A program made the translations under genes and the position numbers. From Macrostomum lignano (lineage: Eukaryota), in NCBI GenBank assembly GCA_002269645.1, contig NIVC01000143.1, positions 1 through 64,000 of the forward strand: 64,000 nucleotides of DNA, read 5' to 3'. The notes beneath the pieces were generated by a model. It was not told where the DNA came from and searched no databases. It was given only the letters and a program-made list of their open reading frames with translations. Positions 2,212 through 43,504 of this stretch are shown here, piece by piece (the stretch's first letter is position 1; the number at the start of each line of letters is the position of its first letter).

Positions 2212-4600
2212 TTAGCTAAGCGCCGGCCGGTTGTTGTCGCGGATGATCACCGCCGTGTTGCTGCCAGCTTGGACCACAAAGCGAGCGGTCTCGGCCGTTG
2301 CCCTGGAGCTTGGCTGGTAAACAACTGGTGCGTCGATCTCGAAGGTCATTGTCAGTGGACTCCTCAGCTGTCGGCCCATCAGCGCCGACGGGCTGCCCCG
2401 GCCGTCGCTCCCGCGCGTCGAACGGTAATTGAGCAGCAGCTTGGCCAGGTACGCTTCGAAGGAGCCGCGGTGCGCTGCAAATGCCCGGAGCCCGTGCTTC
2501 ACCGTCTGGACCATGCGCTCAGCACAGCGGCGAGTGCACCAGGTTGCACCCAATGCGCTGCAGCCACTGCTGAACGTCCTCGAGTTTTAGCACGTCAGTC
2601 TCTGTCCAATGGATGACACTCTCGACCACCTCCGGTAGCTCGGACTTCTCCTCGAACTCGAGTCTCGACATCGCGTCGACATGTGGGATGCTTCTTTCGC
2701 GGACGTACGCGATATCGTAGTCGAAAGCAGCCAGTTGGATCGCCCACCGCGTGATTCTCGCAGACGTGACTTTCGGGATCTCCTTGGCTTGGCTGAAGCG
2801 GCTGATGGTCGCAGTTCAGGGCGAACTTGGCGCTCAGCAAAAAGTGTCGTGCTCGCTGAGTCGCCCACACGATAGCGAGGGCCTCTCGCTCGATGTTGGA
2901 GTAGTTCTGCTCTGCCGCTGTGAGCCGTCAAGACAGGTAGATCACCGGGTGCTCGTCTTGAGTCAGAATGGCCGAGATCGCTTTCTCACTGGCGTCTGTT
3001 GTCAGTGTTGTGCGCTTCGAAGCATCAAAGATGCGCACTACTGGACACACTGCCAGAGCCTTCTTGAGGTCGTCGAATGCCTTCTGCTGGTCCTGGCCCC
3101 ACTTGAATGGTGTCTGCTTACTTCTCAGCTTCGTGAGTGGCTCGACCTGCTCAGCGTAGGCCTGGACGTACCGCGCGTAGTAGTTCGTGAGCCCAGAAAG
3201 GATTCGAGCTCCTGGCGGTTCGTCGGCTCACGGGTCTGCTGAACTTTTCCCACCAGCTTCGAGTCGGGCCGAACACCATCAGCGGAGATATTGTACCCGA
3301 GGAATGAGATCGCAGTGCTTCTGAAAACGCACTTACGCTCGTTGATCTGCATTCCGGCCGCCTTGAGCTTGCGCAAGTTTCTCGACCTTCTCGTCTAGCT
3401 CAGCCTCGGACCTGGCTCCGACACAGACATCGTCCTGGTAGATGACTAGGTTCGACACCAGACCACCGATCGTTGCTTCCATGGCCGCCTGGAACTGTGC
3501 GCTTGCCGTCTTCACGCCGTAGGGCATCCTTGTCCAGCGTAGCAGTCCAATCGGGGTGTTGATGGTGAGAATTTCCTTTGAAGCCTCGTTCAGCTCGAGC
3601 TGATTGTACGCGTCCGCCAGGTCGATGGTGCCGAAGTGAGACATTCCCGCAAGCTCGCAGAACGCCGTCTCGATGTTGGGCAGCGGATAGGAATCAGCAC
3701 AGATCTTGGGGTTAACCCCGATCTTGTAGCCGGCACAGATCCTGATGTCGCCGTTGGGCTTCCTAACGACCACGATCGGAGACGCCCACTGACTGCCGCC
3801 TGGCGCGACTGACTCCAGAACACCGCTGTCGGTGAGCTTCCGGATCTTCTGAACTTCAGTGATGGGACTCGCGGCTAGTAAAGGAATGAATCGGAAGACG
3901 ACTTCGCTCGGTGATCTTCATGGGTTGCGAAGTTTCGCGTCCTGCTCGCCTCGTCAAGCTACCAGACTCTCCTAGTGCTAGGTACACACCAGACCACATT
4001 GTCTGCTTCTCAGCAGTGCGCTGCCCTGCTTGAAGTCCGGATTCAGAATTCTTGAAGCGAGTCCAGGTACGCGTCCCTAGGTCTGCGCATTCCGCCCCAC
4101 GTAGGACTTCTTGTTCTCCACGATTTGTTCAGACTAGCATGACCCTGGATGCGAAAACGCGTCGCTTAGTTGAGGCTTCAGGTGAATGGCACTGGTCGCG
4201 CCTCGAAGTAACTCGGCCGGACATTGTCCCTCAGCAGGATGCGCGCCTTGAAGCCATTCAGCTTCCCGAGAGGCGTTTTCTGCGCATGCCCCACGTGGTT
4301 GAGGCAGAAAGCATCCAGATCGAACTGCAGGAGGTCCGTGTCGAGGAGATCGAGGGTCTTGCTGCAGGCCGCGACCGTGACTTCCACGCACGCAATCTTG
4401 TTCTCCAGTTCGACAGCCGCTGTGAAGCTGCCGAGAGTCTTGATGATCGAGCCATCAAACTGGCAAAGCTGGCGCCTGCACTTCCGCAGCCGGGGCTCAC
4501 CGAGCTGCTTCCAGAAGTTCTGTGGGATGATGCTGCTGTCCGATCCCGAGTCCAGCTGCATCGCCAGAGCGTGACCGTCGATCAGCACGGTCTTCAGGCT
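2212..4600 (-). pseudogene. Fragmented Gypsy pol (element 1): PR 4178-4588, RT ~3333-3858, RNase H ~2600-3300, IN tail 2212-2553
   Basis: Motifs DSG, YQDD, DHQPL, ERMVQTVK are spread over several frames; the integrase zinc finger and most of the catalytic core are missing; a ~310-bp insert lies at ~3859-4170. Confidence 0.88.
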
Positions 4601-5451
4601 GCTGGTCTTGTGCTGCTGGTGCTACTGACAGAAAAGATGGGTCCATCCTCCGTTGCCTCGGCCGCCTCGACTTCGTGAACTGATCTGGGGGCGGACTTGC
4701 ATACCGCCGCGAAATAGTTGCGCTTGCTGCACTTGTTGCAGGGCTTGCCTCGAGCTGAGCAGCGGCCGAGTTGGTGCTGCATTCCGCAAGAGCTGCAAGT
4801 TGCTCGTCCGTCCCGCCTGTTCTTGTCGATGCTGGCAATGGAAGCCGGCGCTAGGGCTGCAGTCTCCCCTGTCTTCTGACTGTCCGCGCCGCCGTACTGC
4901 TGGATCAACTCGAGTTGCTGGATGAACTCGACGCTGCTGTCGAGAACCACCGGCTGCGATGAGCCCTGAATGTGCTCCAGAATCCGGCTGCGGTGCTGCG
5001 CGTTGTGCAGCCCGCTGACGAGCATCGTCTGCATGAACTCGTCCTCGGCAGTCTGGTGGCTGTCCTCCGCATTCAACTGGTCGAATTCGCAGAAGCGGGC
5101 GGCATCCCGAAGTCTCTGTGCGAAGGCCTGCACTGACTCAGTGGGCTCCTGGCGCATCGACATGAATTTTGATCGTTCAGCAATGACAAGCTTCTTCTTT
5201 GGGAGAGTCTTCTCGATTATCAATTCTTTTATATCTGCGAAGTCCATCTCCTCCAGCTCCTTAGGCTTTGCCATGACGCTTACTATCCGCACTGCATTCA
5301 CGCCGGCTTTCGCCAGGAAGAGGTCAGTGACCTGCCGATTTTCTGCGCTGTCCATGAGATTTTTGCTTCGGCTGAGAGCAGCGAAGCTTCGTAGCCAAGC
5401 TTCCGTCATTGCGGGGTCGTTCAGCGGCAGTTCGTCTGCTCGCGTCGCCAA
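4594..5451 (-). pseudogene. Gypsy gag (element 1)
   Basis: 285-aa ORF with WLRSF, RQEPTESVQAFAQRLRDAARFCEF (retrotransposon gag motif) and Cys/His knuckle region. Confidence 0.88.
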
Positions 5452-6260
5452 TGTCGTGTCGTAGCAATAAGAAGGACTCTTTTCTATTTAAGAGAGAGCT
5501 GAGCCTAGAATACGCTACTTCAACTGATAGCCAAACCGGCCTTTATATTAACTTGAATACGACCGACGGCAACATGCCGCCTACATTACGAGTACAGCGC
5601 GATCAAACTTTAAGCTTTAGCATATAGATAGAAAGATGCAACGTGCCGCGCGTGCACACTGAGTACATTGGGAATGAGTACACTAGATATTAAGTACGCA
5701 GATACGCAAGGCGAGTCAGAGATAGTTGATGAGCCCCGCCAAGCGGCGCCACAGGGCGGAAAGGGAAGGAACGGCGGGCGCCTGTTCTGCTGGGAGAAAA
5801 GAGGGGATGAGCAGTTGCTTGGGGTGGGACTGCTACGTCCTAGGGGAGTGGGGAAGGGAAGTTTGTATACTCGTACTTCTAGCTGTACAAAGCTTCGTGG
5901 GAGAGGGAAGGCGGAACGCCTTTAAATGACTTAGACCAATTCAGGTCTATTTTTAAAACAGTGTTCAGTTACAACAGCAAGGGTATGCCGAGACCGGAGT
6001 CTAAAATTAGCAGGCAATGGCGGAGGAAGTTGACTTTTCCTTCGTTTATTTCTCTTCCCGGTGGGAAAAAATGGTCGCCGCGACGGCTTCTGTTTGTTGC
6101 GTTTACGACGGCGGAAACTCTGTTCGAGTGAACGCCGAGTTTCCGTCGCCACAACGGTCGCTGCGACGGCGGTCGGAAAACCCATTAGCGACTCTTATAT
6201 GCGTACGATACTACTTGTATCGTGTAGTAGTGTAGATGGACCATGATATATCCCACGAAA
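5452..6260 (-). repeat. Putative 5' LTR of Gypsy element 1
   Basis: Starts TGTCGTG next to the PBS; CACGAAA at 6254-6260 is a one-mismatch inverted terminus and coincides with a shift to AT-rich DNA. There is no second LTR to confirm the outer boundary. Confidence 0.5.
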
Positions 6261-7030
6261 TTTTTTATTTTTTCGGAATAAAAAAGAAACGAAATATAGA
6301 TGCAGTCTTTTTCAACAAATAAACATTATGTTGCTATGGGAAAGGCTTTTTAGCATTATATTTATAGAATTACCTGATTATTTAGTTCCTGCTAGAGAAG
6401 AAAAAATTCACCCATAGACATACTTCAAAAAAGTACAATAATATCAAACTGTTGTTTATTAAGCATACACGAAGCGTAAAAGAAAGCAATCGTTCACAAT
6501 ATTAAGTACAATAAAAGTCAATTGATTTAAAAGTTATAGTAAAATACCGAATGATATCCGTGTTATGATATGATGAATTACATGACTCCATCATTTTTGC
6601 ATGAAATGGTTTACTCGTATTTGCACATGAAGCTATTCAACAAACGGGAAAAATTAACTCTTTCAAACTATAAATGGCCTATAGGGTCCATTGTACCCCA
6701 CAGGCAAATAAGCAGTCATCAATAGAAATATGGCGTGCATTTAGCTAACTAATTTTCTGATTATGAACATTGAGCAACTACTCCAGATCAGAGCAGTACT
6801 CGAGTTCGAGCTCTTGCTCAACTCAGAGTTTGAGGTGAAACTTGCCAGTTATTGCTCACTTTATTCATACGGCCAAATGACTAATTCAATGGGCTGTCTA
6901 TGCACATAAAGTAATAACACTGTTATGTACAGAAGCTGCAATAATAGTCGATTTATGGGGTCAAAAAACTCATTATTTTTTAAACGTTTGGGGTTTAGAG
7001 TAAAAGATCAGCTGTATCATTTAATATATA

Positions 7031-7530
7031 AGGACACCTAATTTAGCGCCCCAAGGACATCTAATTTAGCGCCCCAAGGACATCTAATTTAGCGCCCCAA
7101 GGACATCTAGTTTGATCCCCTAAGGACACCTAATTTATCGCCCCAAGGACATCTAGTTTGATCCCCTAAGGACACCTAATTTATCGCCCCAAGTACATCT
7201 AGTTTATCGCCCCAAGGACATCTAGTTTAGCGCCCCAAGGACATCTAGTTTAGCGCCCCAAGGACATCTAGTTTAGCGCCCCAAAGACACCTAATTTAGC
7301 GCCCCAAGGACACCTAATTTAGCGCCCAAAGGACACTTAATTTAGCGCCCCAAGTACATCTAGTTTAGCGCCCCAATGACACCTAATTTAGTGCCCCAAG
7401 GACATCTAGTTTAACGCCCCAAGGACACCTAATTTAGCGCCTCAAGGACATCTAGTTTAGCGTCCCAAGGACACCTAATTTATCGCCCCAAGGACACCTA
7501 GTTTAGCGTCCCAAGTACATCTAGTTTGAC
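7031..7530. repeat. 23-bp minisatellite (GGACACCTAATTTAGCGCCCCAA), ~21 copies
   Basis: Direct tandem units visible with point variants. Confidence 0.95.
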
Positions 7531-8154
7531 CCCCACAGAGAATCGCTCGCTGTGAGAAGCGCCAATTGACAACTGCTTTCAGAAATTTTTCTTTGAGACT
7601 CACTGTATGAGAATCTCTTTCATGCGAGAATTGTCCCTTGCGAAGAACCTTGCAAAAATCGATTCGCAGAGACCCTAACCTGACGTTTTGATAACTCAAA
7701 TCTCCAATCCATAGGCGCGTATGGTAATTATAAAGCTTCCTCTCTGGTTCAATGGCCTCCAAAAAATTTAGAAAATGCTGTGGAAAAATTTCGGCATGCA
7801 GTTGGCTTTTGCGAATTTTCTTCTTGATGAATAGCTATTTGCATATGCCATTTTCTAACGCCCTATAAATATATTGTACAATCGGCTTTCGCGTGGCTAT
7901 ATCTGAGAATAAACATATTTTCAAGACAGCTAATTATGGAGGTGGGAACAGTAAAATGGGGCATCTTTGTGAGAAGGGCAACTGAACCACAAAAGGGAAA
8001 TTCTTAGCTTACTATATGCACCTAAAAATGAGGCATAGAAATGAGATTTTGAGATTGGGGGATTTTTGCGTCACCGATTGTCGGGGGATTTTCCGGAGAA
8101 TTCCCAGGGGGGCTTTGTTTTGACGGGAGGGTGATAGTTGTGCACATATGATGG

Positions 8155-10652
8155 TTAAGGCGATGGAGACTCGTCAGATAAGTCCTGCGAATCAGGATAG
8201 TGCCGCTTTCCGCTGCCCTGCTCGGGTGCACTTGGGCGCTTCTTCGCCTTCTTGCGCAGGTTGTCCCCCGTATGCTTAAGAGCCGAGATGACGTGTTTTT
8301 CTACATCTCGCTCAGATGGCCTCTCATGAGGCTTGTCGTCTTTGTACATCGTGGAAACGGCTCCTGGAATTGGATTGGTGGTTTTATTCTGTCAAATTTA
8401 TTCTACTCTATGCTCCATAGTCCCTACTTTAAGTAGACATTATTCACTTGAATTTGTCTAAATGTTTCATTCTGAACCAGTTTCATTGAAGAAACTATAC
8501 TATAAAATTAGGCAAAATGATTCTGATTCTAGATTTACAATTACACACTTTCGGATTTCTGTAAACTTACGCTTCAGAAGAGGAAGCAGTGTTGTCTGGA
8601 AGCCAAGGCTGTCATCTGTTCCCGCGCCGCCGGACCTCTCGGCCAAGCCTCGACCGCAATAGTTTAGCTGGGCCATCATTTCAGGGGTGATACACTTTAG
8701 CAGCATCCGTCGGATGGTGCTCGCAACACTGTCACCCCGGCAGCGTGCCAGTTGCGTGCGCAGAACTTTCTGTGCCTCCTTATCTGATGCCAGCTTTAGA
8801 TAGCCCGCCCACGAAGCAGCTGGTTGCCATTCAGCTTCGGGCAGCTCGATGATAGTGCCGCCAACAGTCGAGTTGCCCTGCCTGTTGAGGGCCGCCAGAA
8901 TCTCCCGCTGCTGCTGTTGTATTGTTGCGTCTCGCTGCTCTTGGAGCTGCTGGCCGCGCAACACCAGCAACAGCAGCTGCGAGATACCCTTCAGACTCCC
9001 CAAGTCACCGAACTTGGCTGTTAAGTCCATCATCAGCCTGCGAGCGGCTTGGTTCTCCAGTTGTAGGCCCACGCTTTCCCTGTTGCGGCTCTGGGTGCTT
9101 GAGCTAGCAGCTGTGATAGCAGCAGCAGCAGCAGCAGCAGTGAAACTCTGGTCATGTTGAGGCCCTGGTGTCGATGTAGCCGTAGCGGTATCTGTTGGCT
9201 GAATAGAATAGGGGTGGGGGACAAATCATTACACTCATTACTCCGGATCTGCGAATACATTTATGTCATTTTCTTGTATAAAGCATATACACCTTATACT
9301 TTCATAGTCTCGAATTCGTACTTAAAATTTAATGCGAACATAGCATAGCATTTATCAATCACAATTACTAATCTTGCACACTCATTTATTTATTACTTTG
9401 AAGTTGCTGCTGTCGAGACTATAGTGACTAAAATGATGTGCAAAGATGACCAGGGGACTGGATTAACCTTTCCCAAGAATTAAACATGTCAAGGCGCTCA
9501 CTATAGTATAAATATACCGTACCCAAGGCCAAGCGCCTGAGCGTTATAAATATTTTGTTGTACTTTTTATTTGCGACTCAGTTGTCATGATTTACCATAG
9601 AAAATTTCCTTTTACAATTCTTTCTCGCAGTTAAGTTTCTCGCTTCATATCTTCTCATCGTTTAACTCATAATATATATACTTGAATTCAGCCCAAGTTG
9701 ACCTATAATTTCACTACAGCGTAAATCTAAAAATTGGTTTGCCATGACATTTTCATCGTCAGGTAGTGAGACACAAGGTGTGCTATGCTTACCCGCACCG
9801 AACGATGCAAATCCGACGGAGAAGCGGCTGCTGCTGAAGGTGAAGCTCGGTTCTGCATGGGTAGTAGTTGACCCGCCTCCATACTCGGCTTAGGTACCAC
9901 AGAAGCTCCATGTGGATGGCTCGCGGATGCTGCTGGCTGCCCGGAACCGACATCAGCCTCTGAATCCATCGTGCCATGATCCGATTGGAGTGCCTGCACA
10001 GATAGATCGCATAGTATGGGAATGGATTATATAGTTTATCCAGGTGTATGATTATTTCAAAGCCCGAAATTATCTCACGTTATGCTTAGACTATAACGAC
10101 GCAACAGTGAAGGGAAAGGCCCGAATTATACTCATTTTTCTAAGCTAGCAGAATTATATTTTACCTGATGGCTTGTGGATAACTCCGTTAAAGCAGCCCT
10201 TGGCCTTAGCTTAGAGTTTATTCTTAGAAACGTACAAACAAAAAATAGGAGTAAAATCATTCTCCTTCCCTGTCCGCAACCGTTGTTTTTACCCATAATC
10301 CGCTCATTCCTTTCCACTCTGCCCTCCGACCACTCCCACACTTCCATTTGTATTTCTAAGAACGAATTCTTTCTACTGCACTGCAAAAAGACAGTCAAAA
10401 AGCTTTTTCGACGGCGTGATTTTTGGCTCCTGTTCTGATCGATAGACACCTGGTTTCTTAATAATTTAGTTTGGTAAATTATCTTTTACATACCTGCACG
10501 GGCTTCAGCAGCAGCCGCTTCTTCACTCCGGGACAAATAACGCGTGGCGAAACCTGAAGGAACATTCGCTTCGGGCGAAAGTCTTTTTCAAGCCGGCACC
10601 TGCGGCAGTACTGTATGACTCTTGTAAGATCATACCCGTCATCAAGCGATAC
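8155..10652 (-). CDS. Spliced gene for a DUF4806/BEN-like domain protein (exons 10652-10494, 9993-9793, 9198-8571, 8363-8155; 5' exons unresolved)
   Basis: Four exons with GT-AG boundaries join in frame (phases 0,0,1). C-terminus RCRGDSVASTIRRMLLKCITPEMMAQLNYCGRG...ERDVEKHVISALKH resembles DUF4806 proteins, often accessory ORFs of DNA transposons. Confidence 0.55.
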
Positions 10653-12042
10653 CTGAGAAGTAAGGATTGGGTGTAAATCTAAGTTGTCTAAATTGCAAGC
10701 ATAATGAAACTAAGTACTCATATAAAAATATACGCCATTCTGAGCACTTTGTACCCATTTCACAGTTGACTATAGGTGTATTTTAAATACCCAGGTATAA
10801 GATTTTAACTCCATTAGGCTGGCTGTAGCAGTGTAGACATATAAATCGTTGAATCTGATCAGCATCTAGAAGCCGGAACAAGTCAGCGATACTGCCATTG
10901 AGTTCCCAAATAGTTTTATACGATTCGATGACTTTTTAAGAGAGACAGTTATCCAGCGGGTAAAAACTATTACTATTAAGAAAGCTCATGAAAATTATTT
11001 GATTCGCTCATACCTGCCCTTAAATCCATGATCAGAACGAACAATTGATGAACAAGATTACAAGATATAAGTATTTGGAATTCGGCAACCAATCGCCAAT
11101 GAATTGTAGGCTGAGCCGGCCGCATAGCCTCCTTAGCAGCTATTTTGCCGGCAGAGTAAAGGCAATAAAGGTCCCACTAGACAGGGACACGTTTGAGACT
11201 AAGAACTAGCACTTGTATACAATATGTAACAGCATTTTCTAAGCCAGTTGAGCGTAGAAGCAAGCAATTTAATCCTCAGTAGGAAAATCAAGCTATGAAA
11301 GACTTGCTTTTCATTGTCTATGGGGATCTATGGAGCAACCTGCAACCAATTTGAGAATCTGGGCGCGTGTTCTTTATTTTCTCGCAGCTTTTTGCTACTT
11401 TTGGGTCTAGGCCACACAAAGGTGTAGTATGTAGCTTCACTTTTACTTAGCAGCATTTGGCTATATACACAGCCGGTAAAACAACCATTCCCTAAATTGT
11501 ATGGTATAAGTCGTCCCCGACTCCATTTTATTTGTATGCATTATATAGATGAAGGTAGCAGGCTGCGGGTCTTGATAAAGTGCGGACGGTTTTTATATTT
11601 TACGGAATACCTGCGGAATGGTGTAAAATATTTATGATGCGGACATTGTTTTGGCTCCAATGGCTTCCTCATCAAACGATGCAATATTTCCCCGCATTCA
11701 GCTAGATGCTATACCATCGTGGCCCTTGTTATATGCACTTTTCAATTTCCGAAAAATGTGCACTGCTCTATTTCCAGTAGTGTAGTCGGGCATAGGAATC
11801 ATAACAATCAAAGTGGAAAAACTGGTAGAAATTTCTGCTTCTTGACACGGTGGACTCAATTTAAACATTGTTATTGCATAAAGAGTCTGTTGTGGCAGTA
11901 ACAGGCTTTGAAAGCCCAGGAAAGCAATTATATTAAAGAATTTATTCTATTCCGCATTCCGGTTCCGCAGTTTATAACGAGCCTTTATAAAGGGCTGTTA
12001 GTAGTCTGTTGAGGTGGCATCCACATCTTTGTTTAGTTTGGG

Positions 12043-12378
12043 GTTGGCGCCTTAAAAACACCCATGACCCGAGATGGCCATGGTCACCGCCCCGATGTCC
12101 TTGCGGTTGAGTCTAAGCAGGGCCCTTTGCGGGCCGGAGGAATGCCAGGGGGGGGGGGGACAACGGCGCTGGATTGCCTGAAGTCGGGGCGCGTTAGCCC
12201 ACCTCCTCTGTCCCTTAAAGCCACTAGTTGATCCAAGTGGTGACGTCCAAAGGTTCTTGGTTAAGCGCCAACAAAAAAATCGGTAAAAACTACACGGATG
12301 AATTTTCTTTTCACTTGCAACAATTTCACTGAATAGTACACTGAATCCAAAATAACTACAAACAAAACCAGGGTAGGA
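12043..12378. repeat. Dispersed repeat, copy 2 (segment order A then B)
   Basis: Homologous to 1790-2206; segment A has short inverted ends GTTGGCGC(C)TTAA / TTAAGCGCCAAC. Confidence 0.75.
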
Positions 12379-13374
12379 GGTAATACGAAATTAATTAGCA
12401 CCTAAACTAGATAGCAGGAAGCTTGGTCGGAAGAAGTCGGGTCTTAAAATTCGAGAGAGACTCCGGTACTTGATTTTAAATAAAATGAATTGGTTCCACT
12501 GCAGTCTAGTCAGAACAGGTAACACACGGGTGGCGTCACAGTAAATCAAACAGAATGCGAAAATATTTATCAGGTAGTTCTCGTTAGTTGGAGAATGTAC
12601 AAACAAAAATAAATTCAGTGGCATCCACTGACTTGGAAAAGTATTAAAAGGGTAGCTGGCTACTTCATATACATTTCCTCTGTACCCTCAATCGTGCGAA
12701 AATTATTTTAGTTGCTCAAGGAGCGAGAAGTAAAGCAACCTGCTTGGTCTTCCTACGGCAACACTTGGTCTTCAGGTACACAAAAAGCGCAGTGAAAACA
12801 TGGTTTTTGAAATTTCAAATCAAGCGATTAATAATAATTGACTTAAGACTTTTGAGCGACAGCATTATTCGTCATGTTCAAAGCGCAAATAACTTTCAGA
12901 ACGGTAGAAGTTAGACTTAGGCAGGCCAGACGACACGATAACCAATACCAAACACGACTAAATATTTGCAAGTCGAGAAGAATTGGATCCATGCTTAACC
13001 CAGCATTTACATGCTCTATGGCATCATCAGTTCTAGCACAAATTGACTGACCATCTCCGGCTGGACTGGGAGTCAACACTGGCACATCAGAGACAGCTTC
13101 ATTATCGAATCAATCTTTGGCAATTGACTCAAGCACCAAATTTAAATCAGAGACCCCATCACTAGACTCCACACATCGCGAGCTGAACTTTGATATATTC
13201 AAATTACACGAGTGCACAAAGAATTGAAGACCAAAAACTCGAAAGGGGGGAATAATGTCAAGATAGGTCAAGCCTAACGACCAACCAATAAAATTGCGAA
13301 GTACACAAAGACATAAAATTGGATTTTAGAAAAAAATACTAGTAAGGCCGTCAGTTCTTGCGGTCTATGCAAGT

Positions 13375-14400
13375 CTAGACTGCAAAAATATTGTAGATCT
13401 CGGAACATTTGTAGTTTATGGCCCAAAAGTTGTCTAGAGCTGCAATGACTTCCTCTTGTGCATCGTCAGCCAGTTTTAGTCGCTTTGAGGACTTATCCGG
13501 ATCGATGATCTTGTCTTTCAAATATTCTGTCCCAAATCGATGGCGCATGAAGTCTCGGGTGAAATAATTCGGGCCTGACAGATTCAGACTCAAAAGACTG
13601 CACTGCTTGCCCTTAAAGGTGCGGATGAAGGAATCGATCCGATCAGGATACAGTCCTTCGAAACGGGAAGCACCTAGATTCCGAGGCAGTTGATTTGTCT
13701 CCTCACTTAATTTGACCAACTTCTTCAGCAGTGAAGTTTGAAGTCGGGATTCCAGTAGTAGCTGCGGATTTGCTTAGTGGAACTTGCTAACTGTTGATGG
13801 CGATGGCTGACTTTGCAGGTTTTCCTTGCCACCATGCACATACCGGTTACTAGCAGAGGATGGCCTGTTGCGTAATGCTGCTAATGGTGACAATTGATTT
13901 GGTAGGTCGTCGCGGCTGTCATGCAGAGTGAACTACTTTAAAGCCGCATCAACACTGGTAGAATGATCAATTATCTGCTTTTTGCTGACTTTGAAGATGA
14001 ACCAAAAGCCCTCTTACATGACTTGAACTTCCGCATCTCTTTGCTTTAAGACAGCAGCAGATAAACAATGGAGTGTTGGATACAATCCAGAACTTTCGCT
14101 AGTAACCTGAGCCTCCTCACCAGAGTCAGATCCACTGGACACCTCACTTTCACCCTCTTCCTTATCTTCAGCATCAAAATCAGGATTAAATGGAGGTGGA
14201 TGTGGACATGACTTTGTCACTGTTTCGATTTTTAAGTTTGTTTAGAATGGCATCGTTATCATTACCTCCTTGTTCAGCAAGGTCGTCAATGAACATGCTG
14301 ACCTTTCCAAATGAATCAATTGAGCCACAGTGCATCACCACACACTCCACTAGATATTACCCTTCTTTCACTTGAAAAAGGCTGCCTCTTTGAAGCAAGG
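13375..14400 (-). pseudogene. Degenerate ORF with BEN-domain-like C-terminus
   Basis: One frame runs from ~14220 to 13375 with a few stops (low-complexity acidic/Ser-rich region then ...YFTRDFMRHRFGTEYLKDKIIDPDKSSKRLKLADDAQEEVIAALDNFW), a pattern like BEN domains. Confidence 0.35.
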
Positions 14401-14639
14401 GGGCGCTTCACAAGGGAGGAGCAGATAGGAGCAATTAAAGGAGAAGTAAAAAAACCTGTACTTACTGAATGAGATCGGGGGCGCCGGCCCAGCGAGAGAT
14501 GGCGCCTAAATAATTGGCGCTGGGAAATTAGCGCCCAGGATGTCGTAGTGTTAACGTAAACGCAAAATCTGACGCTCGCCTTATGGCGCGCGACCGCGCG
14601 GAGGAGGATTTAATTATGAAAATACAATAAGCCTCGAAC

Positions 14640-16322
14640 CTCGAAGACCGTTCGACACGATTACCACATACCGGCAGGGGTCGTCTCCCGTGGCCTGCAC
14701 CGGCGCAGTCTGCTTTGCAATCAAGTGGAAGGTCTTCTCCAGCTGGTCTGGCGTACGGCGGATACTAGGGGCCAGCATGTATTTGGCGAGACAATGGATG
14801 GCATGATCGATCTGAGTGTTCATCTCTCGGGTCACATCGTCGTGCGAGAAAGTTTTTCTAGCTTTAGCTTCAGGCTTGGTGTTCTCCGCCTTGGCTGCCA
14901 TGACGGCTACTGGCCGGCACCACAGCGGGAGCCGGCCTCAACTGCCGCGCGTACCTGCGCTGGCGTGTACTTCTCAGACAGCAGACTGCCGTAGCGCAGG
15001 CAGTACGTCAGCTCATTCCATACGTCTCTCGGGATATTGCTCACCGCTGTGTTCGTAGCGTAGCGGCTCTGGTCCGCCAGCACATGCGTGACATCTTGAC
15101 AAGACTCCGCCCACGTGGTGAGCGTGTCCTCAACTCTAAAATGGCCACGTAGGCGAGCTTTGCCCCATTCCTCGGCGGGCGGCATGGTAAGTCTCCCTTT
15201 TAGGCATTGCTTGAACCACTTCTGGTCTTCGAGATCGTAATCTTCGTCTGCCTCGTACTTGGGCACTGCCTTCTCGGTCGCGACTGTAGTTGCCAGTCAA
15301 AGCATCTGCACGTAGCGCATGAACCGGGCATACTCGATTGGGTCGTGCAGCGTGTCCTTACTCATTTTCTCCATGGTCTTGCGCCACATGACTTCAGGAT
15401 CGATATCTGGAGCCGGGAAGCAGTGGAAAAGGTATGCAAGATCTAGTTTTGCCCTATCCGAGATGTCCAAAGCTTTGACTGCCTCATACCAGTCCAGGTT
15501 GATCACGCCAGATGCTTCGGTCACCAGTAACCTGTGCCGGACCTCACGTTTTACATCTAGCAGCTCTGCGACACCGCTCATTTCATTTTGCAGTATGGCC
15601 AGCTGTTTCTTCATGATCATGGCATAGAATCGCTAGTGGAAGAAGTTGCCGCTGCTCAGGTCTGAGAGCATCGAGCCAAGCAGCTTACGCTTGAGCTGCG
15701 AGAAAGCTGCGCATACGTCTCCTTGGCTAGTTCCTAGGGTTCCGACCAGGCGGTAGCAGCGGCAGTAGGCCTCGGACTGCTCCCAGAAGCGCATTATCGC
15801 TCGGAGGGCTTCAAGGGTACTGTGCTCGAAGACCCACATGACTTTGTCCCTCAGCACGTAGGTATTTCCCATGAACTGCCATACTCGGCAGCCCGGTAAG
15901 ACACCTTGGAAGAAAATATAATCTATTTCGAAGTCGCAAGGGGACAATTGCTCCATCTCTCTCAGCAGTCGCGCATGTGCGTCTCGTACTCTCCCAGGCA
16001 GGCCTCCTAGTAGCAGCTTTTCTGCTGCCTCTGCCATTAGCCATAAGGCCCTATGAGAAGGCTGGTCTAGCCGCTGCACTATTGAACACTCAATAGCTCC
16101 TTGCTGGCTGGCCTGCAAGCCAAAGGCTGAGGCCGTGGTGGCTGCAGCCAGGCTATTGCGAAACCTGCGGATGGCATTGGGCTTCGTGCCGACCTCCAAC
16201 CTGCCTGATTGGGCCATGAGCACGAAATGGTTTACGGCGTCCACGTCGCACCAAATGGCATGTGTATTCTCGAGAATGCCTAAAACGATCTGCGAGATCG
16301 CGAAAACGAAGTCTCGAATTCA
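14640..16322 (-). pseudogene. Endogenous viral element: fragment of a negative-strand RNA virus L protein (RdRp), probably qin-/yue-like Haploviricotina
   Basis: ORFs 15633-16244, 15297-15620 and 14907-15266 share one frame separated by two single stops; one frameshift leads to 14614-14901. The joined ~560 aa contains LAYLFHCFPAPDID (pre-A/GHP-equivalent region), AAKAENTKPEAKARKTFSHDDVTRE (motif F-like K-x-E-x-K...R) and ends at VIVSNGLRGS (motif A-like). Confidence 0.65.
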
Positions 16323-16683
16323 CATCCTTCTGCAGCCTTGAATATGCCGTCGCACACAGGCGTTGATGGCTTCGCCGGGCTGCTGCATGCAGTGCCGGAA
16401 TTCATATCGCACGAATACCGGGTTGTGCCTGTTCTTGAAGTACTCTTTGAGGGCGTCCAGGAGCTCTTCGAGGGTCTTGCCTGGCCTCGTGAGTTCTGCG
16501 TACGCTTCAGCCACCTGAAGCGTAAAGTAGAATCTCTCGTTGTTGACTTGCATCTGTTATGCCGCTTGCAGTCACAAAGCACTTGAATCGGTTGGCCCAT
16601 TCTGCCCACCGTGCTGAGAGGTTGTGTGGCTCTTTCTGAGTATCGAAAGGCTCAGGCGGGGGCAGTTGTAGAGGCACAGACAT
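16313..16683 (-). pseudogene. 5' half of a Gypsy gag (element 3), truncated at the junction with the viral fragment
   Basis: PPPEPFDT...WAEWANRFKCFVTASGITDASQQREILLYASG, then after a frameshift YEFRHCMQQPGEAINACV...GCEFE; typical Gypsy gag N-terminal motifs. Confidence 0.85.
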
Positions 16684-16701
16684 TCCTGCTAGCGATGCCA
16701 A

Positions 16702-16802
16702 TGTAGATTTGTTTTAGGGGTAAGAAAAGGCTTGGCGTTGCGCCTGATAAACAAGAAGCGTGCAAGCTGATTGGCTGCAGAGCGACGGGGGCAGGCATTA
16801 CA
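16702..16802 (-). mobile_element. Short (101-bp) 5' LTR of element 3 with adjacent PBS
   Basis: On the minus strand it reads TGTAATG...AAATCTACA, followed after 1 nt by TGGCATCGC (PBS-like) and gag. Confidence 0.65.
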
Positions 16803-16920
16803 CTTGAGGGTCAGAGAGTTAAACGGTGTACGGCCAACAATTGGCTATTGTCGTTTTTTGTATTGATTTATTTTTTCTATTTAACTTAAAGTAAGTTTCA
16901 ATTTAGTAGCAGCCTAGGGT

Positions 16921-23032: not shown

Positions 23033-23116
23033 AAGTGATTATAACAGTCCTAAGTAAACTCCTAACTACTATTCAGTTAATCAATTAATTATCTAATTTT
23101 ATGAACTGTTGCTGCC

Positions 23117-25941
23117 ATGCCACGGATCAAGGCACTCGAAATCATCCTATCAGTTCTTCTCTGCCTGGCCGCCACTGCCGCAGCCCTGTCCTCCGTAGTT
23201 GCTGTGGACAGCAGCAATTCACGGCAGCAGCAGCAGCAGCAGCAGCAACATCAACACCAGGTAGCGTTTGCCTGTCCAACTGACTCCGCTGAAAACACGG
23301 ATGACCTGCCCGCTGTAGTGTGGCTGTCGGACCCAGCGGGTGGTCCAGGCCGATGGCACGCTGATCCCAGGCTCACCGGCTGCCCCGCGACCCCTTCTAA
23401 GCAGTTGGAGTTCTGCCGCTTGGCCTATCCTCACGTTAAAAATATTATCAATGTGGCACCAGCTGCAGAGACTGTCCCTGTGCCGAACTGGTGCCCGAGT
23501 GGCAGCTCCGCCCTTGACTGTCCAGCTCGAACTGTCACGCCTCAGCTGTGTCTGACTTCTGACTTCAAATCCGACGCTTTGCTTTTGCCGCCGAATTGTC
23601 GATTCGATCATCGATCGGCTGATAATCCGCGTAATCCGGACGAGTGTCGAACTTTTACCCAGTGGCGCCAGGTGGCCAGAGCCCGGTGCGCTAGCGTTGG
23701 CGAGGTGCTCAGGACTCACAGTTTGTTGCTACCCTGCTCAGCTGCTGGCAAATTTGCTGGCGTTGAATTTGTCTGCTGCCCCGAGACTTCTGCTGTGCCG
23801 TTTGCTGTGCCGTCTGTTGAGGATAGAGACAGGGAGATTGTACAGGTGAGTCTGTGGCCTGCCTTTTCGTTTTCCAGAGATGTTTTTTCTGGGTATTGTC
23901 GTGTGGTTCAGCTGGCGTCCCCTCTGTAGCTGGTGCCCGCTCTGTAGCAGGCGCCCCCCTCTGTAGCTGGCGCCCCCTCTGTAGCTGGCGCCCCCTCTGT
24001 AGCTGGCGCCCCCTCTGTAGCTGGCGCCCCATCCCTGTAGCCCGTGCCCCCCTCTGTAGCCGGTGCCCCCCTCTGTAGCTGGCGCCCCCCTGTAGCTGGC
24101 GCCCCTTCCCTGTAGCCGGTGCCCCCCTTTGTAGCCGGTGCCCCCCTCTGTAGCTGGCGCCCCCTCTGTAGCTGGCGCCCCCCCCTCTGTAGCTGGTGCC
24201 CCCTCTGTAGCTGGCGCCCCCTCTGTAGCTGGCGCCCCCCCTCTGTAGCTGGTGCCCCCTCTGTAGCTGGCGCCCTCCTCTGTAGCTGGTGCCCTCCTCT
24301 GTAGCTGGCGCCCCCCTATGTAGCTGGTGCCCCCTCTGTAGCTGGCGCCCCTTCCCTGTAGCCGGTGCCCCCCTCTGTAGCCGGTGCCCCCCTCTGTAGC
24401 TGGCGCCCCCTCTGTAGCTGGCGCCCCTTCCCTGTAGCCGGTGCCCCCCTTTGTAGCCGGTGCCCCCCTCTGTAGCTGGCGCCCCCTCTGTAGCTGGCGC
24501 CCCCCCCCCTCTGTAGCTGGTGCCCCCTCTGTAGCTGGCGCCCTCCTCTGTAGCTGGTGCCCTCCTCTGTAGCTGGCGCCCCCCTATGTAGCTGGTGCCC
24601 CCTCTGTAGCTGGCGCCCCCTCTGTAGCTGGCGCCCCCTCTGTAGCTAGTGCCCCCTCTGTAGCTGGCGCCCCCTCTGTAGCTGGCGCCCCCTCTGTAGC
24701 TGGCGCCATCTCTCTGTAGCTGGCGCCTCTTCCGCAGGTGAGTCTACATGTACCTCCACTGTGAAATGTCCAGTTGGTGAGTGAGTCGCCCCCATCCCGA
24801 CGCCCCGCAGCGCTACCTGGCACTGCCTACGCAGTCATCGGCCTCAGAGTCTGAGCGCTACTCCCAGGCTAGCGGCAGTCTCAACAGAATCAACCAGGCC
24901 AGCGAGGCCCGTTTGGAGTCTCAAATGTCGTCCGAGGAGAATCGAGTCCTGGACCAGCGCCGATCGAGTGCCAGTCGTCTTGTATCGGACATTTTAAATC
25001 ACTACAGACGCGCATACGAGTCTCTACAGCGTCAGGAGTCTTCCGAGCGCCAGCAGCTTGAGTCGGTGCACGAGGACCGACTGAGCGATGGCGTCAGCGC
25101 GAACTTGCAACGGCTGCGTCAGTTGCTTAGCAACGCCTTAGACGCTGGCAAAAGTTCGCAGGCTGTTGGATATCTACGCGAACTGGGTAGGATGACGGCT
25201 GCCGAGGCTACTCGCCTCGCTAACCAAGCTGTTACCATGGCAACCAACAATCAGCTGACCGACCAGAGGCTGGACTCCGCTAAGCAGCGTCTTAAGCAGC
25301 TTCGACAGCAGTTCGACGATGCTCGGAAGCGTCTACCAGCCTCTGAAGCCTCGGCTGATCATCTGGACGATTTCATCGACAGTCTGAGACACGCCGACCT
25401 CGCAATCGACCGATTGAAACCCAGCCGTTCGCCCAGCTCTGTTGACGAAGCCGCTCTGGCTGCTCGCTTCGCTGAAATACTTCGACGACACGCTGAACGC
25501 GACAGGCGCAGACTTGAGCAACAACAGAAGCAGCAGCAGCAGCCAGAGAGGCTGGAGGATCATCTAGCCCTGATGGAGCATCCGCATTCAGCTGTTGGCG
25601 GCATTCCCAGTCATGTCGGCGCCGGGCGCGCTGTCGCCTCATCGTCTGCCGCACTATCCGGCATTCTTGGCGGTCTGGCCACTCTGCTGATTATCGGCTT
25701 GGTTGCCATGGCAATCGTACGCGGCGGATGCTGCGGCGGAGGCGGCGGTAGCCATCGGCGAAGCTGCCTGCGTCGCTGGAGCATCGGGCAGAGAAGTGGC
25801 GGCGGTTGCAGCGGAGGCTACAAGCTGACTCTGGTGGATGAGCAGCCTCAGCAGCAGCCTCAGCAGCAGTCCAATCCTCATCTGGCCAATCTCCAAGCCA
25901 ACGGATACGAGAATCCCACTTATAAACTTCTGGAGGAATAA
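23117..25941 (+). CDS. Appl: Amyloid precursor protein-like (APP/APPL family); exons 23117-23845, optional 24720-24737, 24811-25941
   Basis: Signal peptide; E1 domain (LEFCRLAYP, VPNWC, LLPCSAAGKFAGVEFVCCP); helical E2-like region; TM GLATLLIIGLVAMAIV; C-terminal GYENPTYK motif; CAG|GTGAGT donor and CCCCGCAG acceptor in phase 0. Confidence 0.93.
23910..24737. repeat. Intronic 18-bp minisatellite (CTGTAGCTGGCGCCCCCT), ~44 copies
   Basis: Tandem units of 18-20 bp filling most of the APP-like intron. Confidence 0.95.
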
Positions 25942-28784: not shown

Positions 28785-29410
28785 TCACGGCTTCATCCGG
28801 ACCCACTCAGCCTCGCTGGACACCTCAGCGGGCACAGCGGCGAACTTCAGCAGGCGACACATCCGGCTCACAGATACAAAGGTGCAGCCCAGACAGTCCT
28901 GGCTGAGGTGGCAGGCCATCGCACACTGGATTTCCGTTATGGCACTAACACTGATGTGGGTGATGGAGCTGCTGGAGGCTGAGATGCTCGGCATTGACGC
29001 TACAGCCAGTTTCTTCATCCTAGTAGTAGGACCAGCTGTGGGTGTGACAGATTTTATCAGGTGTAAACAATTTCTGCAAGAGTCCTAGACATTGGAGATA
29101 TAAAACTGAAATTATTCTCAATCTTGTTCGAATTTAAGTTGTATTTTAAGTACAAATTAGGACTCACTGGCAGTGCAGTTGATTTCGTAAATCGAATTTT
29201 TTGAATTTCCACCGCACACCTGTGACGAGTTACCAGAGCAGGCAGAGCTGCATCTGCTCTCAGGAGCGACTCCGTGCAAAGCCGTAGGCGGAGCCGCAGC
29301 AGCAGTACCTTTGGCTCTGAGCACCGAAATAGCGGAACCGACCGTAGGCGCAGATTTGGCTGCACAGCTCCAGCGTCATTGCACTGTTATGCACGAAGGC
29401 CGGGTATGTA
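28785..29410 (-). pseudogene. WSC-PAN paralog A (WSC exon 5'-deleted and frameshifted; PAN exon open)
   Basis: MTLELCSQICAYGRFRYFG remnant at ~29170-29400; PAN/Apple-like exon CAMACHLSQDCLGCTF...CRLL at 28785-29018. Confidence 0.8.
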
Positions 29411-30373
29411 ACCTTAGTAAACCTTACTGCTTTTTCGACAATCGCGGCTTCTGTGATGTACCGTGTTTAAGCGAAAAGGCGGGTTGGGTGGATAAATGCA
29501 GCTCTGCTAATGGCATGCCAGTCAGTTCTGTGGACTCAGAGGAGGCTGATGATCCAGAAGTAACTCTATTTTGGTCCCTAATACGACTTGCTATCTTGCA
29601 GAGCATGCAAACCCATCCAGGATGGGTTGAGCTGAAGAAACTGTCGGGCTACCCATGGCGCCTTGAAGCTTCAGATCAGGCGCAGGACTTAAATTGACAA
29701 AGCAGAAAGAAAGAGCCAGCATTGCAAACACATGCAAATCTGGAGCTAACAACTTTTTCATCCCTAAAGGCCTTGGTTGTTTATTGCTGAAATCTGAAAG
29801 CTTTTTGGTAGCTGTAGGCCTATATACCACTGACAATGAGGCAGTCCTTTTTATGAGGTGGAACTTCTTGGCTTAAATTTCACACGTGTGAACCCTTTCC
29901 TTATTATCCCAAATACCAATTTTTCTTAAGAAGCATAGAAACTACTACTAGTATTGTAAAAGCAATCTTAACAACCTGCCTGTTATGTTACACTTGAACA
30001 CTTTCCAGGTTCGAAGACCCTAAATCTGTGGTATTTAGTATCTGTGGCCTGAACTGCAAACTTTCCTGTCCATTTCAAGATGACTGCTTTGTAATGCGGA
30101 ACAATGGTGCCACGAATTCAATGGTTGAAGTACGACTAATACAGTCAGTAAAACGCTAGGATTTCTTCTTGCAGATTGTCAGTTCTTTATTTTGTTAAAA
30201 TTCAAATTTTATTTCCAAATCAACAGACCAGCTTTGTCATATTTCAAACCACTGTAGACACAGTAAAGTTCTCACCTCAGGAAATCGGGGTACTCGAATA
30301 TGTACCAGAAAACAAAGTAGTTAAAGGTTCCAGACCTACTCAGCCTCACAGCTTCATCCGGAACCACTTAAAG

Positions 30374-32299: not shown

Positions 32300-35299
32300 G
32301 TGCTGGCACCCTCGGGCTCCGCATGAGGCATACAGACGCTGGGTGTGCCACCTTGAGCCGTCCTCTAACCTGACGATCGTCGGGCTGATGATGTCGCTGA
32401 CCCGTAGAGGTGGTGACACGTGGCTCTGCAGCTTGCCTCGCATCCGCGGAGATCGCACTCGCACCAGGTCGCCGACCCGGAATTGGCGCGGCGGCCGCCG
32501 GGATCTGTTGAGCCGCTTGAACTGCCGTCTCTGCCGCTCCTAAATCTGATCGGCCAGTGGGTGCTCTCGAGTCGCTCGCTTCGGCTGCAGCGTCCACAGC
32601 GGCGTGGTGATCTTGCGGCCGAGCATCAGCTCCGCTGGCCTCACGCCGATCAGCGCATGCGGTGTCGATCGGTACGCCCACAGGATGGACTGCACCGCTT
32701 CCAGGAACGAGTAGCCGTCTTGAAGGTGGCTCTTCAAGCCCTCTTTGACTACACGGTTCAGGCGCTCCACTCCGGAATTTCCTTGAGGGTGGTAGAACGG
32801 AGTCTGACGATGATCGATGCCGTACGCCTTTAGAAAGTCGTTGAACTTCTGGGAGATGAACTGGGGTCCTCCATCGGTGGTGATTACGCGCGGAATGCCC
32901 CAGCGACAAAACAGCGCCATGAGACTCTTGATAATAGTCGCAGATGTCGCTGAAGAGAGGTAGACCAGTTCGGGCCACTTTGAATGCAGGTCATGTACAC
33001 CGAGTATGAAACGGCAGTTCTGTAGTGCACCCTCGTGCAGCTCTCCGAACAAGTCGATCTGCAGCTCTGTCCACGGTTCCTTCGGCCACTTGGTCGGGGT
33101 CAGCACTGTCCGATGCGGCTTGAAGCTCTTCTCACTGATGATGCATGCAGAGCAGCTGCTGACGAACCTCCGATGTCGCTGTCCATTTTGGGCCACCACG
33201 CGGTATCTCGGCAGTGATGCTTGGTCCTGCTGACTCCCTTGTGACCTTGATGCGATAAGTCGAGTATAACGGCGCGAGCTCCCATGGCCAAGCACCTGCC
33301 GTTGCTCGAAACAGTCAGCTCGTTCCTGACACTCCAGTAGGGCAGCAGGCGCTCATCGAGCTTTTTCTTGTCTGGCCAACCGGAAACTGTTAACTCTGCA
33401 ACTCGTGCCAGGAGCTCGTCCTTTGACGTTGCCTCCGCCAGTTCATCCTTGGTGACCACGGTCAGTGCTTCGGCCAGGAGCACTCTTTGGACTTCCAGAT
33501 CATCTGTTTCATCGCCTTCCGTCGGCTCGGCCGTGTCCTGGCAGCGCGACAGAAAGTCGGGCACGATGTTCTTGGCACCCGGGACGTACTTGACGGTGAA
33601 GGAGTAGTTTAACAAACGATCAGCCCAGCGATGCAGTCTGAGTGGCCGGTGTCCACTGCCAGATGATGACAGCAGCGTGGTGAGAGCCTGGTGATCGGTG
33701 TGGAGCTCGAACCGTCGGCCGTACAGGAAGAAGTTCCAGCGCTCACAGGCTAAGATTCAGGCCAGGGCTTCCCTCTCGCTCGCCGAGTAGCGGCGCTCCG
33801 TAGCACTCAGAGTTCGGCTCGCAAAGGCAACCGGGCGCCACTGGCCGTCGGAGTCTTGCTGGAGGAGCATCGCACCGAGAGCTGATGCTGAGCTGTCGCA
33901 GCTGACGATGATCTGCTGATCTGCGTCGAAAAACTTGAGGCAGGGTGGCTTGCACACTCCTGCCTTCAGCTGCTCAAAAGCCTGCTGGCACTCACTGGTC
34001 CACTTCCACGGCTCGTCCTTCCTCAGCAGTTTCATGAGGGGCTCTGCCGTGCTGGAGAGGCTGGGAATGAAGTTGCCGAAGTACTTCACGACGCCTAGAA
34101 AGAAACGCAGCCACTTCCTTGGTGTTCGTTGGCGGCTGTACCTTCTCGATAGCTTCGACGTGTGACTGCAACGGGCGGACTCCAGAAGCGCTCAGCTCAT
34201 AGCTTAGGAAGTTGACCTTGTCCTGGCGCCAGGAGCACTTGGCCGTATTGATAGTCACGTTGTGCGTCATCAGAGCTTGCAGCACCTTGTACAGGCGCTT
34301 GTCATGCTCTTCTCTTGATGCCGCGTGCACTACGATGTCGTCAATAAAGTGCACTGCGCCTTTGATGCCACTGAGGATCTTAGCCATCACCTTCTGGAAC
34401 GCAGCCGGTGCACTACTCAGGCCGAAGCACAACCTCCGATATCGATATAGGCCTCGCTCCGTCACGAACATCGTCAGATTTCTGCAGTCCTCGGCCAACT
34501 CTAGTTGCAGGTAAGACGAATTCAGGTCCAACTTGGAGAAGCATCGCGACCGGGCGAACTCGGCGGAGAGCTCCTCAAAGGTCGGAAGTGGGTATCTGTC
34601 CGGTATGATGCTCTTATTTGGGCCTCTCAGATCGTTGCAGATCCGGATCGAGCCGTTCGCCTTTGGCACCACGACTAGGTTTGACACCCAGTCTGAGGCG
34701 TCGACCTCCTCGATGATGCCTTGCTGCAGTAGCTGGTCGATCTCCTTTTGAACCGAATCCCTTAGGCTGAGCGGCACTCTGCGCAACGGTTGAGCAGTCG
34801 GTTGCACCGCGGGGTTGACTCGCGGCCTGTGCTGAAATCCTTTGATGTGTCCGAGTCCCTGAGTCAACTGGTCGAACCGGCCTGGGATCCAGTCAGGTAG
34901 GGCTCTCGTGCCGATTGTCTGCACTCGCTCACCGTCTGCAGTGACGATTCGCAGTCCCAGCTGATCCATGAGGTCGCACCCCAGGATGTCAGATCCGGTA
35001 TTGACCACGCTAAGGTTGACGTAAGGCACTACTTTGTCCTTGAGTTGCACCGAGGTCAGGATGTCACCAAGCACGCAGATCTTGCTGCCGTTGAAAGCGA
35101 CCAGCTTCCGGGATGACGCCTGCAGGGGCACGTTGGACAGAAGTCTGTTGTACGTCGTCTTGGTGATGATGGAGACTCGCGATCCGGAGTCAACGAGCAG
35201 CTTGACAGGCCTCCCGTTCAGCAGCACTTCGCAGAGCTTGCTTGCTGCCGCAGCTGTCGACACAGTGCAGATGGAGTACTCATCCTGAAGCTGTCGCAC
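32300..35299 (-). pseudogene. pol of Gypsy element 2 split by frameshifts (PR, RT, RNase H, IN)
   Basis: LVDSGS; WVSNLVVVPKANGSIRICND; FIDD; SCDSS...YSASEREALA; HQGH...CSAC; QIDLFG, TDGGPQF, GVERLNR. Confidence 0.92.
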
Positions 35300-36188
35300 T
35301 CGGTTGCCGCTCCTGCAGACTCTGGCGAAGTGCCCGCGCTTGCCGCAGGACTTGCACTTCTGCCCCTTTGCTGGACAAGTCTGTCCACCGAAATGCGCCG
35401 CTGAGCCACAGTAGCCCCAGCTCCGGCCGTCGGTTGTCGGCTTCAGTGCCTCGTGCTGTCTTGCCGCCGCTCCACTGTTCTTGGCCTTGCTAATCTGCTG
35501 GACTCCACACGAGCTGCTTGGGTCTACGTGGCTGGCTGCCTCCCTTGATGGCCTGGGCCTCCAGCAGTCCAGTTTCCAGTCGCTCCGCCAACTGCACAGC
35601 TGTCGCCAAGGTCAGCTCCGGCTCCATAAGCAGTCGCTCCCTGATGTGGTTGCTGAGCACTTTCTCGACGAGCTGGTCACGCAGCATCTCCTCCTGGAAG
35701 GTCTTGAAGTCGCAGTTCGAAGCCAGGTTTCGCAGCGCGGCAACGAAGTCGCTGATCTTTTCGCCCGGTCGCTGAGCTCTCTGTCGGAATCTGTGCCTCT
35801 CAGCAACTACGTTGACCTTGGGTCCGAAGTGCGTGTCCAGGAGCTTCAGCGTGTCATCAACTGTTGCTGGCGGATGCTCTCCTTCCTCCTGATTGCTGCT
35901 GGCCTGTAGAGACATATAGATGTTTTGTCCCTCTGCACCCAAGCAGTGGATGAGCAACGCTTGTTTTCTTTGCTCCGGCAGATCGATGGCTCCCGATGCT
36001 AGCAGGTAATTGCTGAACATTGCTTTCCATCGGTTTCATTCAATCAGCGGTGCTTCAGCGGCTGGCAGAAACGGCTGCGGTGGCGAAATGTTGACACTCA
36101 TTCTGTTGGCTGTATCTCTGCTTGATTGTTGGGACCCTCGCTGTGGGTCACCCATTGCACTTGCATTTGCACCTTCTGTGCTGCTCAT
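35290..36188 (-). pseudogene. gag of Gypsy element 2 (nonsense codon near 36040, frameshift before zinc knuckle)
   Basis: KQALLIHCLG, ERHRFRQRAQRPGEKISDFVAALRNLASNCDF; downstream knuckle region CxxCGKRGHFARVC in another frame. Confidence 0.88.
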
Positions 36189-42679: not shown

Positions 42680-43504
42680 GACGGATATGATTCGGGTTTT
42701 TTCAGCGAAAACTTCAGTCAGCAGACAGTTCCTATCTCACTGCTTATTTTTTGCAATCGCGGCTTCAGTTTTGGCCTGATCTGCATTTACATTCGATGCT
42801 CTGTGATGTCGCACCGTATTTAAGCGAAAATTCGAGGTGGGTCATGGATTAATGCAGCTCTGCTAATGGCATGCGGATCAGTCAGTGTTGTGGCCTCAGG
42901 GGAGGCTGAACCAGCTGTAGCTCCCTTTCGGTCACTGCACGAATTGTTTTCCTGCAGCGAATGCAGACCCAGGAGGGGCGTGAGCTCAAGAAGCTGCCTG
43001 GCTACCCATGGCGCCTTGAAGCTTTTGCGATTTAGAACGAAGTTGACAAAGCAGAAATAGCCAGCATTGCAAACAAATTCAAAACTGGAGCTAACATCTT
43101 TTGTCACCCCTAATCTGATGATATCTTGTTTGTTCTGCTGAAATCTAAAAGCTTTTCGGGAAAGCTGACAGATTCCAGGGCGCTGGCGTCAACAGCAGCG
43201 GCACCTCCTGCACCGGATGTAGACAGTGCGACTCGGTGCAGATTATGTGGCCTGTTTGATTGTTTGAATGAGCTATGCACCAACACTGTAGATTTTTCTC
43301 TGTAAGAAAAATTTCAGCTTTTCTAACACTACCAAATACAGTATCTCGTTTTATTTTGCCAATCGGGAAGATGAGTTTCTGACGACTGAAGGTATTTAAT
43401 GAGCCAGAAAGAGAAATCGACTCTCCATTGAGTGCGGACATTTTAATTTAACTGTCTTTGACAGTTGAGGTCGTCTGCGACATCCGGACAGGCTGTTGCT
43501 GTTG

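Follow-up and report, generated by a model that had tools for sequence, protein, structure and literature searches.

The stretch of DNA analysed here (the window) comprises 64,000 nucleotides of Macrostomum lignano sequence, and the locus of interest lies on its minus strand. It starts at 16702..16839 with a TG...CA 5' LTR from a Ty3/Gypsy family present in many copies, the outer end of this LTR, at 16839, being exactly the family terminus; internal deletions of 60 nt and 2 nt have reduced the 200-bp family LTR to 138 bp. The initial annotation had recognised this TG...CA LTR, though with a size of 101 bp and a start at 16802 that must be replaced by the above values. One base past the CA lies the primer-binding-site-like TGGCATCGCTAG (16700-16689), also noted at that time, and the identical motif is present in the parent copies. 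The start of gag follows at 16310..16683, about 124 codons of what is a single 1326-aa gag-pol frame in the parent; indels near 16518 and near 16345, each of which breaks the frame, had escaped the initial annotation, and the gag frame is shifted after about 55 codons and once more ahead of the junction. The stub does end just past GCEFE, as originally described, with the gag / viral L junction at 16309..16310 rather than at ~16315 and no host DNA between the halves. The remainder, at 14640..16309, is an mRNA-sense fragment of a qinvirid L (RdRP) gene on the same strand as the stub, corresponding roughly to residues 90-653 of the protein from Hubei qinvirus-like virus 1 and ending at motif A. 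The description of a second frame of ~560 codons in the same orientation, with two stops and one frameshift, was accurate: there are about 556 sense codons, exactly two stops (15635-15633 and 15299-15297, minus strand) and one frameshift, between ~14922 and 14910. The viral part has a G+C content of 55%, the flanks 43% and 36%. Past the viral end the flank (14300..14639) is unique and carries no 3' LTR, pol or adjacent target-site duplication; a single matching 5-mer ~120 bp further on is at chance level. No second copy of the hybrid's LTR is found in the 64,000-nt window, and no empty-site allele of either flank was found, with the top 40 candidates scored in part of that search. Having only one LTR, the locus is a one-ended hybrid, and an intact element is excluded.

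Elsewhere in the window, an amyloid-precursor-like host gene at 23105-25941 (plus strand) matches a Macrostomum lignano protein at 99% identity, which bears out the earlier reading of the host as a non-insect invertebrate; it is broken up by a tandem repeat region with an 18-bp unit. Two broken Ty3/Gypsy elements, at 3333-5487 and 32540-36035 on the minus strand, have the same orientation as the hybrid. The segment 16925-16995 is a very high-copy short repeat, with a summed contig depth in the thousands; it is tRNA-like by eye, without an ARAGORN call, and is possibly a SINE. A gene family whose cysteine-rich frame we take to resemble a WSC domain has dispersed and inverted copies at 29191-29697, 42245-42736, 46900-49156 and 54105-54847. 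The frames at 13375-14300 were considered as a second viral segment, an idea that found no support: the 132-aa frame there has no Pfam match and part of the region is a dispersed repeat.

The L fragment, with X at the two stops, was compared by phmmer with 1.84 billion representatives, giving 132 proteins at E<=0.001 and 18 at E<=1e-30, a similarity well past anything that chance would give. The best match is viral, namely the RdRP of Hubei qinvirus-like virus 1 (E 6e-56, 31% identity), and the 18 best are 26-34% identical to the fragment; with no near relative in the library searched, the suggestion of a possibly undescribed virus lineage is supported. Names were checked for 30 of the 132 matches, of which three carry virus names, three are "hypothetical" and 24 are unnamed; the three virus-named proteins are all from qin-named or ICTV-type qinviruses. 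The initial assignment to a qin-/yue-like L can thus be narrowed to its first half, which fits the top match and all of the virus-named ones, there being no yuevirus-named protein among those named. The match to Hubei qinvirus-like virus 1 L is colinear over residues 119-565 and then, past the frameshift, 569-653. Of the positions in its span that are invariant in an alignment of 20 proteins the fragment keeps 14 of 15, and of the near-invariant ones 23 of 26. The motif names used for the fragment (pre-A, F, A and so on) are those we presume to apply to L proteins. The three peptides originally singled out are all present; FHCFPAPDID aligns at about residue 400 of the reference L, ~170 residues ahead of the KxENTK...R block, and for that reason the label "pre-A" given to it does not fit. 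Ending at motif A and missing motifs B-E and the capping domain, the fragment cannot be a working polymerase. It stops short of motif C, which reads IDD in 77 of 79 full-length relatives; elsewhere in the genome, IDD is found in insertion B (described below), while C4188 is not fully IDD. Such an IDD motif C has been described as a qinvirid feature (PMC10101049).

The viral pieces match no Pfam family; PF00946 itself matches four of 20 full-length relatives, one of them above the cut-off. A PDB sequence search with the fragment gave no match under E 0.15, and a word-seeded search for longer homologues gave none, weak evidence that was overturned by phmmer. For near exogenous relatives of the motif-F piece, there were 19 pattern matches in viral contigs and 157 in metagenome contigs, none of which was confirmed. 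Qinvirids have a negative-sense RNA genome in two segments, with an N gene; the virus from which the fragment came turned up neither in the phmmer search nor in these contigs. Phylogenetically the fragment nests inside qinvirid diversity, lying between named qinviruses in a tree of 87 rows x 778 columns and among them in an IQ-TREE analysis of 29 rows x 181 columns; both trees are without a named yuevirus or mononegaviral outgroup, and their root is not a formal one.

The LTR family that supplied the other half is young and multi-copy. A search of the worm's own genome gave at least 70 matches, and the gag part is common to at least 25 loci at 77-96% identity, in each case with the best 40 of 120 candidates scored. 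Intact LTR parents, which the initial annotation had proposed looking for, do exist: seven of the nine copies examined in full have two 200-bp LTRs, the pairs being 96-100% alike, and these seven represent four sites, with 5-bp target-site duplications at three of the four. In one parent copy a single intact frame of 1326 aa encodes, in the order typical of Ty3/Gypsy, a zinc knuckle, protease, RT, RNase H and integrase; the family shows the full set of Ty3/Gypsy features, with two TG...CA LTRs, PBS, PPT, TSD and the order gag-PR-RT-RH-IN. The hybrid's own gag stub matches PNMA in Pfam at E 1e-4, below the cut-off. Over ~528 bases it has 9-10 differences from six of 16 copies, 15-20 from nine and 48 from one, and its distance of 1.7-1.9% to the nearest parent copies agrees with the earlier view of a fairly recent event. 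Identity to the intact parent copy ends at 16310. Of 25 family loci tried, 20 matched the junction anchor, and in every one of these gag continues past that point. The join is coding to coding, in one polarity and with a spacer of 0 -- a direct retroelement-virus junction in host DNA. Parent gag has no extra similarity to the viral bases past it, 19-25% of control positions scoring equally. We conclude that a dead, one-ended Gypsy-qinvirid hybrid is real.

Using tblastn with two L proteins, two more families of qinvirid L insertions were identified in the genome besides the window copy (A): family B in contigs C541, C1945 and C4700, and family C in C46, C321 and C4188. Mismatches between A and B are concentrated at third codon positions (55%, with 18% and 16% at the others), as are those between A and C46 (54%, with 29% and 28%), which indicates that A, B and C derive from different viruses and rules them out as copies of one event. 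Over shared stretches, identity is 58% for A-B, 55% for A-C, 36% for B-C and 40% for A to its best reference. A, B and C form a clade with SH 1.0 in the 87-row tree and UFBoot ~96 in the 29-row tree, where labels may shift on re-rooting; over 205 columns B is 31% identical to C and 30% to the references, hardly a difference, so that the clade rests on the likeness of B and C to A. A weak fourth qin-like L family (E ~0.002) is found at C3130:113545-113928 and in C247, C1377 and C4099. Mononegavirales-like L matches (PF00946, best E 1e-45) were also seen, at C498:62412-63841 and in C497, C1166, C1292, C4304, C838 and C56; in C498 and in C497 the surrounding frame is 720 aa long and stop-free within the match.

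On its 5' side, family C opens with an LTR-like end, followed by 15 nt of the 18-nt tRNA-Lys3 PBS (sequence from the table of PMC1084362) and, within ~9 nt, by sense L. A 21-mer spanning this LTR end and PBS has eight exact matches in the genome, five of the eight at non-viral loci, and none for the reversed control; two of the five non-viral loci were read, one leading on into a gag-protease frame and the other into a DUF5641/integrase frame. The domains of the latter type are our ground for taking the LTR partner to be BEL/Pao-like. The 150 nt upstream of family C align significantly with one candidate parent, C273 (score 51.5, shuffled maximum 37.9), and not significantly with another, C1132 (29.1 against 48.4). 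Because it begins directly after a BEL/Pao-like LTR end and 15 nt of tRNA-Lys PBS, family C is a second independent retroelement-qinvirid hybrid, of the kind that the initial annotation had suggested seeking. In C46 it runs from 262843 downward and contains ~2.1 kb of qinvirid L in sense orientation, corresponding roughly to residues 380-1230; a second LTR was not seen in the 7.3 kb read, and a further piece of ~300 bp, 80% like the hybrid, lies ~2.9 kb downstream.

Family B lacks an LTR and a PBS at its 5' edge. Insertion B starts (L045:1155-1181, C541) within ~27 bases of the L position at which the window copy starts (window 16310); this near-common edge of A and B, though they come from different viruses, could reflect a hotspot, an RNA end or chance. 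Family B (L045:1200-3250) is strongly depleted in CpG, with an observed/expected ratio of 0.15 where A has 0.87 and C has 0.82, and ~750 bases of L are missing. In two of its three copies (C1945 ~12175-14390 and C4700) a TG...CA element of ~2.2 kb lies inside the insertion, with short inverted repeats at its termini and what looks like a 4-bp duplication; similar sequence adjoins a truncated Gypsy parent copy in C630.

The hybrid in the window was probably formed through capture of qinvirid L by template switching of an LTR reverse transcriptase. This was the initial proposal and is still something that we infer, strengthened by the genome's second hybrid. A qinvirid would have been present in a germline or stem cell, where a young Ty3/Gypsy element supplied the reverse transcriptase that copied the plus-sense viral L RNA; the enzyme would then have switched to the element's own RNA within gag and completed the copy through the PBS and LTR. 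The resulting DNA meets the chromosomal sequence exactly at the LTR end, where it was presumably joined by integrase. The other end may have been joined without an LTR or lost afterwards. Subsequent neutral decay has left ~1-2% substitutions, several indels and the two stops. Juxtaposition -- insertion of viral cDNA by a LINE reverse transcriptase or break repair, arrival of a Gypsy element beside or in it, and fusion of gag to L by deletion -- is an unlikely alternative, though one with which several observations are compatible: 3' LTR, pol and TSD are all absent, family B has no adjoining LTR, there are other Gypsy relics in the window, and the deletions suffered by the stub mean that deletion can also create joins here. 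It requires the removal of >4 kb of the element with zero host bases left and with matching polarities, whereas the two halves are equally decayed and the second hybrid, family C, is joined within a PBS.

The divergence of the stub predicts 0.6-1.3 stops in L, and two are seen (P 0.14-0.37); both halves have decayed alike, and the lesion count in L fits neutral decay. This bears also on the idea of a domesticated, protein-coding gag-L fusion or an antiviral truncated polymerase under selection, to which the small number of lesions in 556 codons and the presence of an LTR promoter and gag ATG upstream of L lend some colour, but which is very improbable, with gag out of frame well before the join and L itself interrupted by stops and a frameshift in the numbers expected of neutral sequence.

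Read contigs of four runs were compared with the locus. Contigs of runs X9 (14300-16339) and X5 (14447-16339), from two different studies, cross the junction with 0 differences, the former including host flank past the viral end, and a second X9 contig (16811-16934) carries the flank-LTR join, also with 0 differences. Both junction contigs extend 30 bases into gag, one under the bridging rule of 31 bases; these 30 bases would be the remainder of a k=31 graph at a repeat branch. Among 24 listed runs, from one organism and eight studies, 20 contain some of the stretch and 15 half or more of its words; the assembly itself may have been built from one of the runs with the stretch. Among the read-contig pieces listed, the stub's middle is represented by parent sequence alone, with its private variants spanned by none of them, and one-molecule continuity of stub and L therefore rests on the assembly. 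Contig C106, which is either a contig overlap or a haplotig, repeats the locus over at least window 5895-15905 (99.7% over the 10 kb compared) and ends at 15905 inside the viral piece, 400 bp before the junction, with indel errors rising there; the join of viral end and flank at 14639/14640 is present both in it and in the X9 contig. None of the runs listed as containing the stretch is an identified RNA run; X16 and X17, which are RNA by guess only, cover the locus patchily, X17 extending to the flank, a pattern that speaks neither for nor against expression. An assembly chimera, a possibility that the initial annotation had itself raised, or contaminating viral cDNA could draw on the early end of C106, the 30-base overlap and the unspanned variants, and is nevertheless the least probable of all the explanations given the two exact crossings, the included host flank and the number of runs containing the sequence.

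That three germline insertions arose independently from one clade points to the flatworm as a real qinvirid host, a virus of the worm's food or symbionts being a less likely source, and the locus may be regarded as a fossil suggesting that qinviruses infect flatworms and that retrotransposons copy them into the genome. The hosts listed by ICTV are crustaceans, insects, gastropods and nematodes, with flatworms not included (PMC10721934), and in a 2024 paper trypanosomatids are the sole hosts taken as confirmed (PMC11108086); the main text of a flatworm virome survey has 0 mentions of "qinvir" (PMC9241645). No flatworm qinvirid or Macrostomum RNA-virus EVE was found in the literature searched, though supplementary EVE tables may already list these loci. 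Qinvirid hosts being mostly inferred from mixed samples, such insertions bear on the host range of an obscure family. A piRNA pathway has been reported in Macrostomum lignano (PMC8191739), and if the hybrid has any role the likeliest is as a putative template for small RNAs, which we put forward only tentatively. A broader and rather doubtful reading is that Macrostomum has its own unsampled qinvirid clade, repeatedly archived via Ty3/Gypsy and BEL/Pao-like LTRs, in part at a common break point in L, and that the hybrids feed Piwi small RNAs as a heritable antiviral memory; if true, such memory would exist in a lophotrochozoan, one that has adult stem cells. The value of the locus lies in a capture that has happened repeatedly, is resolved to the base and is found in a tractable animal other than an insect: as the element's parents are still living and the worm is a laboratory species that has both RNAi and piRNAs, the capture route and immunity become testable outside insects.

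Compared with the L proteins of Qinviridae (Muvirales), such as those of Hubei qinvirus-like virus 1, Beihai sesarmid crab virus 4 (which we take to be a qinvirid) and Wuhan insect virus 15, the fragment is colinear over ~560 residues and keeps the conserved positions; it differs in being ~30% identical overall and 40% in the conserved stretch, in forming its own clade with families B and C, and in being truncated, integrated DNA. Both the template-switch capture route and arthropod qinvirid EVEs are already known. Endogenous qinvirid RdRP fragments have been reported, in another phylum, from the ant Camponotus floridanus (EVE7; PMC6540820) and the bristletail Monocondylia (table of PMC6955108), the text of the latter study reporting retrotransposons to be absent near its EVEs. 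Copy-choice capture, with a same-polarity bias, has been proposed for EVEs of Aedes (10.1101/127498) and a nodavirus EVE of a nematode (PMC5177903). The LTR-EVE hybrids of Aedes aegypti likewise have Ty3/Gypsy or BEL/Pao sequence beside sense viral sequence, but they sit in piRNA clusters, while the flatworm hybrid is known here from sequence alone, and rhabdovirus L-derived pieces are reported to be scarce there, whereas the flatworm piece is L (10.1101/127498). Similar in kind is eBxnv-1 of the nematode Bursaphelenchus xylophilus, an RNA-virus polymerase in an LTR element of a non-insect invertebrate: a positive-strand nodavirus RdRp in Bel/Pao, flanked by two LTRs and expressed, with no other copies of the element reported in the account of it (PMC5177903). 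Unlike eBxnv-1, the flatworm hybrid derives from a negative-strand virus and is one-ended and broken, and its live parents fix the junction to the base.
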